From NCBI GenBank assembly GCA_964016885.1, contig OZ024743.1, forward strand, positions 369,210,001 through 369,274,000: 64,000 nucleotides of DNA. Reading direction: 5' to 3'. The notes beneath the pieces were generated by a model. The model had not been told where the DNA came from, made no database searches, and saw only the letters and a program-made list of their open reading frames with translations. A program made the translations under genes and the position numbers. This DNA is from Eledone cirrhosa. Its lineage: Eukaryota. This document shows, one piece after another, positions 5,315 through 40,540 of the stretch (the first letter of the stretch is position 1; the number at the start of each line of letters is the position of its first letter).

Positions 5315-5356
<42 letters not shown>
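5153..5356. repeat. (AT)n microsatellite
   Basis: Direct reading. Confidence 0.95.
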
Positions 5357-5359
<3 letters not shown>

Positions 5360-5373
5360 CAACATTGACATAA

Positions 5374-5423
5374 ACAGGTACTTAAGTTTCGTTGGGTTCT
5401 GGACTCCAACTCATTCAGCCTGT
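5374..5423 (-). ncRNA. Type I hammerhead ribozyme (core variant CUGAAUGA)
   Basis: acagg CTGAATGA gttgg-agtccagaac-ccaac GAAA cttaag TA cctgt: 5-bp stem I, 5-bp stem II, palindromic stem III (acttaagt). Confidence 0.7.
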
Positions 5424-5516
5424 CATAAGAAAAAATAAAAATAAAAATGGCCTCTTTTGGTATGGTCTGCACCACCTTTCGCACTTAAGGCCATCTTTAT
5501 TTTTCTTTTTCTTATT

Positions 5517-5566
5517 ACAGGCTGCAAAAGTTGGGGTCCAGAACCCAACGAAACTTAAGTACCTGT
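5517..5566 (+). ncRNA. Hammerhead ribozyme copy with mutated core
   Basis: acagg ctgcaaaa gttgg...ccaac GAAA cttaag TA cctgt. Stems intact, CUGANGA box degraded. Confidence 0.55.
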
Positions 5567-5742
5567 TTATGTCACTGTTGTAATTATTTATACTAAACTT
5601 ATCCTATGGACTGAGTGCTTTTACTCTTGGATATTTCTACCAAACTTTTACTACAGTATAAATTCTAATTCTATTCTATTATGAGTTGAGCCAACTTATA
5701 CAGCTTCATATGCAAATGAGATTAATCACCTCATTTACTCAG

Positions 5743-5921
5743 ATGAGAAAACTATATATTCTTGCCTGTTTTCAAAGTCCAGCAGTTGCAAGAGTGGGAG
5801 GGATCGTCCTGATGGGAACCAGTTCAGTTCGAAATGCACTCATGATTGTTCCCCTTGCTTCTGCTGGACACCACCAGGTGGTGATAGCCGGTGGTGTTTT
5901 TGCATAGATGCAGCTTTCTAA
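5743..5921 (+). CDS. Candidate terminal exon of a small 8-Cys peptide (CSalpha-beta / macin-like spacing)
   Basis: Acceptor tttactcag at 5742, then a phase-1 open frame xEKTIYSCLFSKSSSCKSGRDRPDGNQFSSKCTHDCSPCFCWTPPGGDSRWCFCIDAAF* ending at TAA 5919-5921. No upstream exon seen. Confidence 0.4.
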
Positions 5922-5989
5922 ATGTTTATTTATAAACATACCATATTTCTTTAGAAATACGAAATTCCAATACATGCATATATATATAT

Positions 5990-6735
5990 AAGGCAGGCTG
6001 TATGATGCCTGCATACGAACAGCAATGTTACATGGCAGTGAGACCTGGGCATTGTGTGCAGAGGATATACGCAGACTGGAGAGGAACGAAGCTTGCATGC
6101 TCCGCTGGATGTGTAATAGTAATATACGTGAACGGCAAAGCATAAATGAACTAAGGGAGAAATTAGGAATAAGAGGGATCAGATGTTGTTTACTCGAGAG
6201 AAGACTACGTTGGTACGGTCACGTGATGCGCATGAAAGTCGACGGCTGTATAAAAAAGTGCAGGGCGATAAAAATAGACGGTAGCCACGGAGTAGGCAGA
6301 CCCAGAAAAACCTGGGACGACTTGATAAATTCTGACCGCACACACTTACACCTCTCCAAGACAATGTCACTGGACCGAGATCTTTGGCACTACACAATAA
6401 TACAGAAGACCTGCCTTGCCTAAGTACAAAGCGAAACCTACAGTCAGTAGCACCTCTAACAAAAATACACCCCCATCTCACTACCCCACCCCACCCACAC
6501 CACCCCTTTCAATGTAAAGTTATTACACTGTAATGTGGCCATGTAGGTAACATGGTAAAAACCTACCAGTCCACACTGTAAACGTGGTTGGTGTTAGGAA
6601 GGGCATCCAGGCGTAGAAAACCCACCAGAAAGTCCTATACGAGCAAGACAACCAATCTTGCCTCAAGTGGGAAAATTCCCGTCCAAACCCATGTAAGCGT
6701 GGAAGATGGACGTTAAATGATGATGATGATGATGA
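5990..6735 (+). mobile_element. 5'-truncated RTE family 2 LINE
   Basis: MLHGSETWAL...RRLRWYGHVMR...GRPRKTW ORF2 C-terminus, 3' UTR and (GAT)n tail; near-identical to 60486-61533. Confidence 0.92.
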
Positions 6736-7086
6736 TATAATTGGTGTGGGATGCTTAAAGCGTCCGTATGCGGTAGGCCGTTTGAGCACTCGATGCTTTT
6801 ACAGAGCAGAGTTTACTATCACATAGGAAACGGAGAATCAGTGATGTGACGAATTAAAATTTATTAGACATATTACAATCGGTTCTCTGACGACCAGCTC
6901 GAGACACGATCGATGTGATGATCGAACCTGACTCTGAAATCGCAAGATCCTCAGATACTTCTCGATTTTTTGAAGCAGAGTTTCCAAAATTTTGGAAACT
7001 TCGAGTTGGTCGCCAGAGAAACGATTGTAATATGTCTAATAAATTTTAATTTGTCACACGACTGATTCTCCGTTTCCTATGTGATA
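6736..7086. mobile_element. Hammerhead-bearing foldback unit with tail
   Basis: Arms 6817-6903 and 7001-7086 are reverse complements. The right arm abuts (AT)n; unique tail at 6736-6816. Confidence 0.75.
6869..6958 (-). ncRNA. Type I hammerhead ribozyme with extended stem II
   Basis: gtat CTGAGGA tct...[~55 nt]...aga GAAC cgattg TA atat. The opposite arm keeps an intact GAAA cgattg TA atatg (7018-7034) followed by aataaa. Confidence 0.65.
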
Positions 7087-7159
7087 TATATATATATAAA
7101 TTTATGTTTATATATATGTATGCATATGTTTATATATATATATATGTGCATACATATTG

Positions 7160-7287
7160 TTACCACAATCTTAGCTACCTAATGCAGTATAGGCATGCTG
7201 AGAATTAAGGAAGCCTTCTTAATCAAGCAATTAAGACCTAGGATCAATAATCGAATGAAAAGAAGTGCACCAGAATGGTTAATTTAA
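7160..7287 (+). pseudogene. Penelope-like element GIY-YIG endonuclease C-terminal fragment
   Basis: Reads TILAT*CSIGMLRIKEAFLIKQLRPRINNRMKRSAPEWLI*, homologous to LRIKEALLVCKLNPQINNR at 52894-52990. Confidence 0.7.
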
Positions 7288-7482
7288 AAGCCCTGTATTC
7301 CAACATCCCAGTGGCCAGTTTCATTCTTTCTTTCAAATTAATTCTATGTCCTCACTAGGCAAACACACTTAGATTCTCTCACACAAACACGCACACGCAC
7401 AATTTTTTTTCCGTTTTATTATATACATATTCGCACACACCTTTCACTACATAAACTTTCATTCATGCACACATATACAAAC

Positions 7483-38089: not shown

Positions 38090-38690
38090 GAAGAGCGACT
38101 GGTATTTGAGGAGTTTGGCCCCCTCAGCCCAACGTGCAGCAGAACCTGGGTCATGCCATCTGGCCTTTTGCCGTCCCCTCGATCCAGCCCCACCGGCTTG
38201 AGCTGGGAAGGGAAGCCTGCAGCGTCCAAGCCATGCTTAATGACCTCATTGAGGGCAGCATGGCGTGGAATTCGGCTGGCACTGTGGCGACAAGTAAGTG
38301 GGTGGAGGTCGAAAGCGTCCACGGTGGAACTGCAACGACATTGGTGTAGCTGGCAGATCCGGAGGCCGAGCCTCAGGGAAACGCTGATGCGCAGGCTATG
38401 GTTGTCTAGCTGCGTGCCAGTGGAGGAAGGCGGCAGGGCATGGAGCCAGGCACCACTGTGGGGTTTGGAGGCCGCACGAAAACAAGAAAAGCGGTGGTGG
38501 TCGGTGTCCTCGGCCCTAGGGCTACCTCCTTACTCACCACCATAGGCGCTGAGCTGGCCAGCCACAGGTGTGAGCCCCGCGAGTTGGAGTGGCTTTTCCA
38601 GCGCGTCTACCTTGCCGTCCTCCGAGGAAACGCCTTCTCCATTCTGTCCGCCGGAGCTGTGGGTGGGGCCCATCACGTACCGTTATAGAT
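38090..38690. mobile_element. CRE-like RLE element with internal inversion
   Basis: 38090-38502 minus strand (GAWL.ALP, LRLGL, C..C..D..HPLTC, RPDGMT); 38503-38690 plus strand (GVLGPRATSLL...RGNAFSIL, 3' end). Confidence 0.82.
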
Positions 38691-39146
38691 GTGTATACAG
38701 ATATTAACTCATAAATCTGCATTGACTTTTATGTAGAAAACTAATAGAAGAGCAATAAAATTGCTATCAACAGTTCCAGTTTATCACGGGCTTCTATTAC
38801 TGCTCTTATCATCATAGCTTCATAACAAAGAAACCACAGCCATGAGAAACACCAACACCTCAACAAGACACACAGCGCCAAACACCACTAACATACATTT
38901 ACTGGTTAGAGTGCACATATACGTTAATCGGCGAGAAAGACGACTTTGTGTAGGTGAGGTAATTGGGATACCCGGACTTATGCATCAGTTTCTACGGTTC
39001 CGATCTGCTGGCAGTGTTCCGAGTGGAACAACTATGTGCAGAGTATTAGGTAATACAATATGTGATTTGGTGTGGGACCGTGTCATGAGCAGGAGTTTTC
39101 CTCCCTTGGAAAGATCAATATAGCGTGTCACTATCTTCAGTTGCTG

Positions 39147-39830
39147 TAATGTATATGTATATATGTGTATATGGGTATAAGTGTATATGTATATATGTGT
39201 ATATGGGTATAAGTGTATATGTATATATGTGTATATGGATATAAGTGTATATGTATATATGTGTATATGGATATAAGTGTATATGTATATATGTGTATAT
39301 GGGTATAAGTGTATATGTATATATGTGTATATGGATATAAGTGTATATGTATATATGTGTATATGGATATAAGTGTATATGTATATATGTGTACATGGAT
39401 ATAAGTGTATATGTATATATGTGTATATGGATATAAGTGTATATGTATATATGTGTATATGGATATAAGTGTATATGTATATATGTGTATATGGGTATAA
39501 GTGTATATGTATATATGTGTACATGGATATAAGTGTATATGTATATATGTGTATATGGGTATAAGTGTATATGTATATATGTGTATATGTATATATATGT
39601 ATAAGTGTATATGTATATATGTGTATATGGGTATAAGTGTATATGTATATATGTGTATATGGGTATAAGTGTATATATGTGTATATGGGTATAAGTGTAT
39701 ATGTATATATATGTATAAGTGTATATGTATATATGTGTATATGGGTATAAGTGTATATGTATATATGTGTATATGGGTATAAGTGTATATGTATATATGT
39801 GTACATGGATATAAGTGTAAATGTATATGT
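39147..39830. repeat. 32-bp AT/GT-derived minisatellite, ~21 copies
   Basis: Unit gtatatgtatatatgtgtatatgg(g/a)tataagt. Confidence 0.95.
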
Positions 39831-39893
39831 GTATATATGTATTTATTTATTTATGTCTGTGTGTGTTTATATATATATTTATTAAAATAACAG

Positions 39894-39896
<3 letters not shown>

Positions 39897-39961
<65 letters not shown>
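39897..39961. repeat. Pure (AT)n microsatellite
   Basis: Direct reading. Confidence 0.97.
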
Positions 39962-39965
<4 letters not shown>

Positions 39966-40006
39966 AATAAGATAAGGACGGTTGGTTACTCCTTCATTAC
40001 GTTTAT

Positions 40007-40099
40007 TGGTTGGTGACGCGCGTTTCGCCACTGATCAGCTCAAGGTTCGATCTGCATCGATCTGACCTGACTCTGTAATCCGCGGCTCGTCAGACCCCA
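40007..40099 (-). ncRNA. Type I hammerhead ribozyme, intact, extended stem II
   Basis: tggggt CTGACGA gccgc...gtggc GAAA cgcgcg TC accaacca on the minus strand. Confidence 0.82.
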
Positions 40100-40133
40100 T
40101 GTAATGTTAATGGAAAAATGCATTAACATTACA

Positions 40134-40226
40134 TGGGGTCTGACGAGCCGCGGATTACAGAGTCAGGCTAGATAGATAGAGATCGAACCTTGAGCTGATC
40201 AGTGGCGAAACGCGCGTCACCAACCA
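40134..40226 (+). ncRNA. Type I hammerhead ribozyme, intact, extended stem II
   Basis: tggggt CTGACGA(40140-46) gccgc...gtggc GAAA(40207-10) cgcgcg TC accaacca. GUC cleavage triplet, palindromic stem III acgcgcgt, aataaa immediately downstream. Confidence 0.85.
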
Positions 40227-40325
40227 ATAAACGTAATGAAGGAGTAACCAACCGTCCTTATCTTATTTCACTATAATACACTCTGCCTAGCTCGACACTG
40301 AAGTGAACCTAAACATATATATATA

Positions 40326-40538
40326 TAGTGAAAGAGTGAAGAATAACATGGTCGCCCATGTTATTCTTCACTCTTTTACTATTATTACTCCAAGAATCAC
40401 CTGCATGGGAATTCTAGTACACTCGCCACCTAAGGAAACTTCTTGTTGAGCCAAACAACGCCGTACGTTAAAACTATCCATAGTACAGAGTACTCACAAC
40501 CTCTAACTGGATTACCTTTAACGATAACTTATTATCCA

Positions 40539-40540
<2 letters not shown>
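40326..40540. mobile_element. Short foldback with tail in (AT)n, no hammerhead retained
   Basis: tagtgaaagagtgaagaataacatgg-tcgc-ccatgttattcttcactcttttacta, then a ~160-nt tail, then (AT)n. Confidence 0.65.

Follow-up and report, generated by a model that had tools for sequence, protein, structure and literature searches.

The locus considered here raises a question about the origin of very small repeats. It is a stretch of 64,000 nucleotides (nt) of the Eledone cirrhosa genome (contig OZ024743.1, positions 369,210,001-369,274,000), hereafter the window, and all unit positions are counted within it. Five short foldback units without open reading frames (ORFs) lie in this window against AT-repeat tracts, some of them with hammerhead ribozymes, and a first-pass annotation of the same DNA had offered two options for them: extreme truncation products of Penelope-like elements (PLEs), or a separate class of tiny ribozyme retroelements. 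The first option is the one supported, given that in all five families coding sequence for a GIY-YIG endonuclease (EN) is found upstream on the same strand. We regard it as very probable that the five units are short insertions of five EN+ PLE families with Hydra-clade motifs, likely produced by a protein that cuts a (TA)n tract and copies RNA from both strands. In addition, the 5' ends of many copies fall on a fixed, family-specific stop, which probably corresponds to the transcription start, i.e., the capped 5' end of the element RNA.

The layout proposed earlier, in which one arm abuts an AT tract and the other arm continues into a tail, was borne out in every one of the five units, where the tract is a TA repeat. 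The features of the units are given below; family positions (+/-) are numbered from C3 of the hammerhead.

5356-5452, minus strand: inverted tail-less arm of unit 1, from -33 to about +70, its outer end against the TA tract 5155-5356.
5379-5418, minus strand: complete type I hammerhead of unit 1, with the variant core CUGAAUGA, the palindromic stem III CUUAAG and a GUA site.
5453-5488, no strand: spacer between the arms of unit 1, of non-family sequence.
5489-5663, plus strand: sense arm of unit 1 with a tail of ~70 nt, its core mutated to CTGCAAAA, ending at the fixed family 3' end.
6736-6988, minus strand: tailed arm of unit 2, from the preferred family 5' stop (-34) to the fixed 3' end, with the hammerhead GAAA changed to GAAC.
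7003-7087, plus strand: inverted tail-less arm of unit 2, from +54 to +138, without the CUGA half, against the TA tract 7084-7145.
9521-9718, minus strand: tailed arm of unit 3, from +4 to about +204, the tail being the 5' untranslated region (UTR) of full-length elements.
9718-9847, plus strand: tail-less arm of unit 3, from -56 to +73, with a damaged hammerhead stem III, ending in TA short of the usual family end (+109).
10293-10465, minus strand: a sixth unit absent from the earlier list, a solo copy of the unit 3 family that runs exactly from the family 5' stop (-66) to the tail-less 3' end (+109), with a complete hammerhead at 10399-10350.
39958-40112, minus strand: inverted tail-less arm of unit 4, against the TA tract 39896-39961.
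40093-40015, minus strand: complete hammerhead in that inverted arm, with an extended stem II of 60 nt, the stem III CGCGCG and a GUC site.
40121-40314, plus strand: sense arm of unit 4 with a complete hammerhead (40140-40218) and AATAAA, its tail ~50 nt short of the family 3' end.
40326-40354, minus strand: inverted tail-less arm of unit 5, from +130 to +158, downstream of the family hammerhead.
40353-40540, plus strand: sense arm of unit 5 with a tail of ~160 nt to the family 3' end, followed by the TA tract 40539-40614.

The paired arms themselves are found at 5360-5440/5500-5580 (unit 1), 6817-6902/7001-7086 (unit 2), 9657-9718/9778-9839 (unit 3) and 39958-40112/40121-40275 (unit 4), and unit 5 is a short hairpin of 29 nt at 40326-40376. 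Some details of the first description had to be corrected: unit 1 does not end at 5586, its tail reaching about 5660-5663, and the tails, taken at first to be unique, are a fixed part of each family. The units are indeed largely unrelated in sequence, except for units 2 and 4, which are weakly related by a match of 34 nt (82%, E=0.002). Unit 1 is flanked by opposed copies of other dispersed repeats (4679-4887/6525-6733 and 5032-5157/6325-6450), and the tail of unit 2 adjoins a (GAT)n tail at 6718-6736.

When the genome (3.0 Gb) was searched with each unit, with 40 candidates scored and 30 loci fetched per search, each unit was found to belong to a separate high-copy family; the first look returned 3809 candidates for unit 1, 3694 for unit 2, 1961 for unit 3, 2489 for unit 4 and 2280 for unit 5. 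Every family has two fixed 3' ends, one for the tail-less and one for the tailed arm, which are located at about +70 and +142 in unit 1, +138 and +210 in unit 2, +109 and +204 in unit 3, +141 and +238 in unit 4, and +158 and +320 in unit 5. In a search of the unit 3 family that did not select for the tail, the query being the 5' part of the unit, 20 of 21 two-armed loci (a number that includes three loci that are duplicates or the query locus) consisted of one tail-less and one tailed arm, and the remaining locus was unreadable. The AT enrichment expected at the insertion sites is present: of 236 arm 3' ends, 150 have the start of a (TA)n run of at least four repeats no more than 12 nt away, whereas at random positions in the flanks the proportion is 742 of 8360 (8.9%); a few duplicated loci and the copies in the window itself are counted among these arms. 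Two loci showed other arrangements. In locus L013 (oriented positions 411-1750) an inverted tailed arm of the unit 5 family is joined via a short palindrome to a truncated element of the unit 4 family, a possible chimeric insertion of two families; in locus L138 (oriented 500-1200) two unit 3 copies lie tail to tail within a larger inverted duplication, perfect and extending into flanking DNA, which may be a product of assembly or rearrangement.

Longer copies connect all five families to coding sequence, as the first-pass annotation had suggested should be examined. For unit 4 the link to the ORF was seen in three of 30 loci (L012, L013 and L026), and for unit 1 in one of 30 (L048), whose order of TA, inverted arm, thumb plus EN, hammerhead, tail and TA matches the layout of unit 1 in the window, the arms being separated by ~1.1 kb that encode thumb and EN. 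The unit 5 link was likewise found in one of 30 loci (L145), with the bridging sequence confirmed by L130, L122 and L137. For unit 3, L160/L216 and L219 reach both reverse transcriptase (RT, with GLYRDD) and EN; for unit 2, one of three extended loci (L213) provides the link, and here it counts against the assignment that ~230 nt of the bridge rest on this single copy. Complete RT plus EN elements were reached in the unit 3 family only, the other families having been followed to the EN and unit 1 also to the thumb. Five loci of the unit 3 family (L216, L219, L221, L228 and L230) show RT and then EN, all decayed by stops or frameshifts, and carry an Asn-rich (AAT)n stretch between the thumb and the EN, a likeness to the N-rich inserts described in Adineta Penelopes. 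Of 30 loci retrieved with the N-terminus of the unit 3 ORF, 11 have the complete unit immediately before the ORF, and in seven of these an ATG lies 54-58 nt past the end of the tail. The unit is also found downstream of the EN and the 3' UTR; its position directly upstream of the ORF means that the tail is 5' UTR and that the elements are partial tandems. The window itself holds no remnant of PLE proteins that could be detected by tblastn with four homologs or by an EN peptide search.

The homolog search returned 13 proteins, eight of them with PF26215, and the best one (P0001, 47% identity) has RT and EN in one chain. As regards the clade, RWR and DKT motifs were seen in copies of the unit 3 family, and a CxCx5C linker is present in the families of units 1-4 and degenerate in the single unit 5 copy. 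The CCHH motif is absent, with at most one Cys between the equivalents of GIY and YIG. The CxxC..E..N..CxH pattern is found in units 3, 4 and 5, with one Cys altered in the unit 2 copy, and for unit 1 only the CxxC was read. An RWK-like motif, DKT, CxCx5C, the lack of CCHH, CxxC/CxH around E and N in a C-terminal GIY-YIG domain, and insertion into (TA)n are features described for the Hydra clade, together with a canonical hammerhead in the pseudo-LTR (pLTR, a pseudo long terminal repeat) (PMC8557442). An inverted 5'-truncated copy with a one-sided tail, which is typical of PLEs according to the same source, is also what was found in these families. Two points weigh against the assignment: membership in the Hydra clade is drawn from motifs, and Pfam gave for seven ORF fragments one sub-threshold GIY-YIG match (19.5 bits, cut-off 22.6) and nothing meaningful for the six others. 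The Neptune clade, considered at first, was dropped, since the motifs match the Hydra definition. Some differences from the published description of the clade should be mentioned: the tails are 70-170 nt here versus 30-40 nt there, the 3' UTRs extend further, over about 0.4-1.9 kb, and stem II measures 60-80 nt in three families (PMC8557442). The hammerhead motif given in the supplement of that paper for Hydra-1_Obim, an element of Octopus bimaculoides that also has a (TA)n target, matches none of the five found here, which are therefore other families.

The ribozymes were claimed for four of the five units, and this stands in part. Complete type I hammerheads are present in both arms of unit 4 and in the minus arm of unit 1. 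Those of units 2 and 3 are damaged or half: in unit 2 one arm reads GAAC for GAAA and the other is missing the CUGA half, and in unit 3 stem III is damaged in one arm while the start of the core is missing from the other. Unit 5 has none, the hammerhead of its family lying just upstream of the sequence kept by the window copy. A strict pattern scan matched four places in the window, namely the two arms of unit 4, the minus arm of unit 1 and the sixth unit, whereas 100 block shuffles averaged 0.11 matches with a maximum of 2; a relaxed scan found the identical four, against a mean of 0.06 in 50 shuffles. At the family level, the CUGANGA/GAAA/UH core with three stems is matched in units 2, 3 and 4, and one-base core variants characterize units 1 (CUGAAUGA in 11 of 18 readable arms) and 5 (CCGAUGA in 9 of 12). 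The stems differ in sequence among the five families yet pair in all of them, and the self-complementary stem III is different in each (CTTAAG, CGATTG, TATATA, CGCGCG and CAATTG). The AATAAA said to follow the ribozyme is present in unit 4 and missing from unit 1. The Rfam check that had been proposed gave no hammerhead, a whole-window scan at E<=1 yielding 37 matches with none of this kind among them. When unit 4 is folded as RNA, a single long duplex results (-293 kcal/mol), so that a read-through transcript would sequester both ribozymes. In the short copies the ribozyme is probably a passenger, which would be locked in the duplex between the arms if transcribed through.

Arm lengths, 5' ends and the junctions between arms vary from copy to copy, and this variation, together with a PLE origin, is what the first-pass annotation had held to mark ordinary truncated insertions. 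Yet the 5' ends pile up at a family-specific site, so that many copies share a recurring length. In score-ranked samples the clusters were found at -66 to -75 in unit 3, -7 to +4 in unit 5 and -33 to -37 in unit 2, and less sharply at -22 to -33 in unit 1 and -22 to -36 in unit 4; the -36 cluster of unit 4 was set aside, being probably a chance matching to TA. Since the score-ranked query of unit 3 had selected for the stop, this stop was counted in a sample taken in genomic order. The first 20 nt of the unit 3 unit, a 20-mer at -66, have 712 exact matches in the genome, and the first 60 listed places yielded 65 arms, of which 41 stop within 6 nt of one site and 24 (four of them crossing a small indel and read by eye) run on for at least 60 nt, with none between; i.e., the next ~55 nt are empty. 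In the unit 5 family, where the query began at +143 and thus left the 5' end unselected, 13 of 20 arms that reach -7 to +4 stop there (binomial P 8e-13 versus the downstream rate); the loci of three arms, the window copy and a duplicate, were left out of this count. In the window, the family stop is the start of both unit 1 arms, of the unit 2 tailed arm and of the sixth unit.

The position and sequence of the stop suggest what it may be. In three samples of the unit 3 family, A(-68) is where 43 of the 73 stopped arms end, with the next family base kept in only two of the 43. A G precedes A(-68) in 16 of 43 arms versus a background of 16% (P 8e-4, uncorrected), and in 7 of 21 in the genomic-order sample. 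This A is the centre of TCACTG, and a TATA box, TATATAAA, starts 32 nt upstream; the unit 5 family has TCAGT with TATAAAT 32 nt upstream. Such a distance is that of the spacing between a TATA box and an initiator, and an extra G is known to arise from the copying of a cap. PLE promoters have been located in the pLTR (PMC2377424; PMC8557442). On the basis of the DNA, we consider that the fixed 5' stop is probably the transcription start, and that many short copies are likely to be cDNAs that ran off the RNA's capped 5' end. Several observations weigh against it. Before the stop, T is more frequent than any other base (23 of 43), and microhomology can account for some of the extra Gs. The TATA box is clear in two families only, weak in unit 1 and absent in units 2 and 4. 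Most loci were chosen by best score, which biases the end positions; of 31 incidental unselected arms, 23 end downstream of the stop, only four end at it and four go beyond it. No ORF-linked 5' copy starts exactly at the stop, the nearest starting at -61 and -62, and the reading is one of DNA sequence. Literature searches found no description of a fixed run-off 5' end in PLEs; subscription papers and most supplements lie outside what these searches cover, and such a description may be in print.

An alternative to a transcription start keeps the PLE origin and takes the stop as a structural pause of the RT or a microhomology hot spot. It would be consistent with the partly palindromic region just below the unit 3 stop, which can form a hairpin, with the fold-back overlap that ends 11 of 73 junctions, and with the families of units 2 and 4 that lack a clear TATA box. 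Nevertheless, a pause would not account readily for a single-base mode at an initiator A with a TATA box at the same distance in two unrelated families, nor for the extra G and the lack of stops in the 55 nt upstream, and we consider it rather unlikely.

A mechanism that could give rise to these copies starts with the element protein, which would cut the (TA)n tract and copy RNA from both cut strands. The two fixed 3' ends would represent two internal start sites of reverse transcription, one per strand, and the two cDNAs would be joined head to head, each by its unfinished end. The inverted arms are most simply read as the result of one priming event on each strand, at different sites. Paired priming of this kind would resemble the twin priming of L1. 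The RNA would start at the pLTR promoter, from a few to 70 nt above the hammerhead, and priming on its 5'-proximal segment would give a cDNA of 170-330 nt that runs off the capped 5' end. Such a run-off would result in a fixed stop and an excess of tiny copies, and the stumps, which lack the upstream TATA box, are probably dead ends. It has been shown in vitro that the anole PLE protein cuts and extends both strands, and that two internal start sites on its RNA give rise to the tail (PMC11167929).

A snap-back of one self-copying cDNA, instead of two priming events, could also produce an inverted arm. The arms within a locus are more alike than those of different loci (3.5-9.0% versus 4.9-11.0% difference) and share minor variants two to five times as often, and short palindromes are found at several junctions. 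However, this likeness fits equally a single source locus or a later conversion, the longer arm can be either of the two, up to hundreds of bases being found in one and not in the other, and the tail-less arm ends at one fixed site. A snap-back is judged unlikely.

It seems very improbable that the short copies form independent non-autonomous families of a SINE or retrozyme type, with their own short masters and borrowed PLE enzymes, in spite of the fixed 5' and 3' ends that give a recurring unit of ~270 nt, of the 712 matches mentioned above, of the non-autonomous PLEs described in Chlamys (PMC8557442) and of the argument that animal retrozymes derive from pLTRs (preprint 10.64898/2026.07.22.740005), given that the short units are collinear with pieces of ORF-bearing elements, the TATA box lies outside the unit, the junctions do not recur, and the hammerhead cleavage site shows no excess of 5' ends (4 of 44 versus 2.6 expected, P 0.26). 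For the unit 3 family, an interpretation as a stand-alone non-autonomous element was entertained and dropped, as six of 30 copies run on upstream and one reaches the EN. The arm listings of the first-search loci contain no head-to-tail monomer arrays, only solo or head-to-head copies, genome-wide arrays not having been searched for. With arm lengths and junctions that vary and the links to ORFs, the separate class of tiny ribozyme retroelements is left unsupported. Metazoan non-LTR retrozymes are likewise short and non-coding, carry a type I hammerhead and are related to PLE pLTRs; however, they consist of head-to-tail tandem monomers that are cut to unit-length and circular RNAs (PMC7229834; 10.64898/2026.07.22.740005), in contrast with the units described here.

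Several of these features have counterparts in other systems. The minimal hammerheads reported in PLEs share the short palindromic helix III suited to dimers, the many divergent families per genome, and the opposite-strand pairs 100-700 bp apart, which were related in that study to truncated PLEs; as far as its available text goes, the study maps no ends or targets, and its variants do not include the CUGAAUGA and CCGAUGA cores (PMC4209133). Two internal RT start sites that define the tail, an AT-rich target, cutting and extension of both strands and inverted pLTRs are also features of Anolis Poseidon PAc (PMC11167929) and Adineta Pen2a (PMC3846280). The start sites of PAc are located inside the ORF (PMC11167929), whereas those of the unit 3 family would be in the 5' UTR, and the available text on PAc and Pen2a describes no fixed 5' run-off point (PMC11167929, PMC3846280). 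In Octopus vulgaris, the repeat annotation mentions PLE expansions, with hammerheads not appearing in the main text (PMC13282606).

Other features of the window may be noted. A further foldback at 47895-48091 (minus strand, arms 48011-48091) is followed on the minus strand, after the arms, by a hammerhead-like CUGAUGA...GAAA motif at ~47963-47920, and looks like a sixth family. Another foldback, at 51880-52100, has a one-sided extension between TA tracts, and pattern scans showed no hammerhead in it. Tandem arrays are located at 31231-31846 (32 nt), 39150-39839 (32 nt), 42016-42257 (31 nt) and 61713-62187 (22 nt).

PLEs have previously been described with this layout, with hammerheads, with TA targets and in octopus. 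The units represent new families that belong to a known PLE clade and follow a known insertion pattern, and the proposed run-off stop is the one addition. For repeat annotation the value is modest: five families with thousands of copies each, mostly ORF-less stumps that are missed by Rfam and Pfam. To the single base, the ends of these stumps mark what are probably the two RT start sites and the capped transcription start, and provide a cheap and testable handle on PLE priming, on the formation of head-to-head pairs and on the rebuilding of pLTRs, which is a stated open question in the field (PMC2377424). Regarding the latter, it can be proposed, tentatively and as a possibility that is less probable than its opposite, that PLEs make a strong-stop cDNA like that of retroviruses, which would be primed 170-330 nt inside the capped 5' end, run off, and then be either integrated as a stump or moved to the identical segment at the 3' terminus of the RNA to continue into the ORF. 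If this is true, transfer to the 3' segment would regenerate the pLTR, and the genome would hold, in its thousands of stumps, a record of strand transfers that failed.

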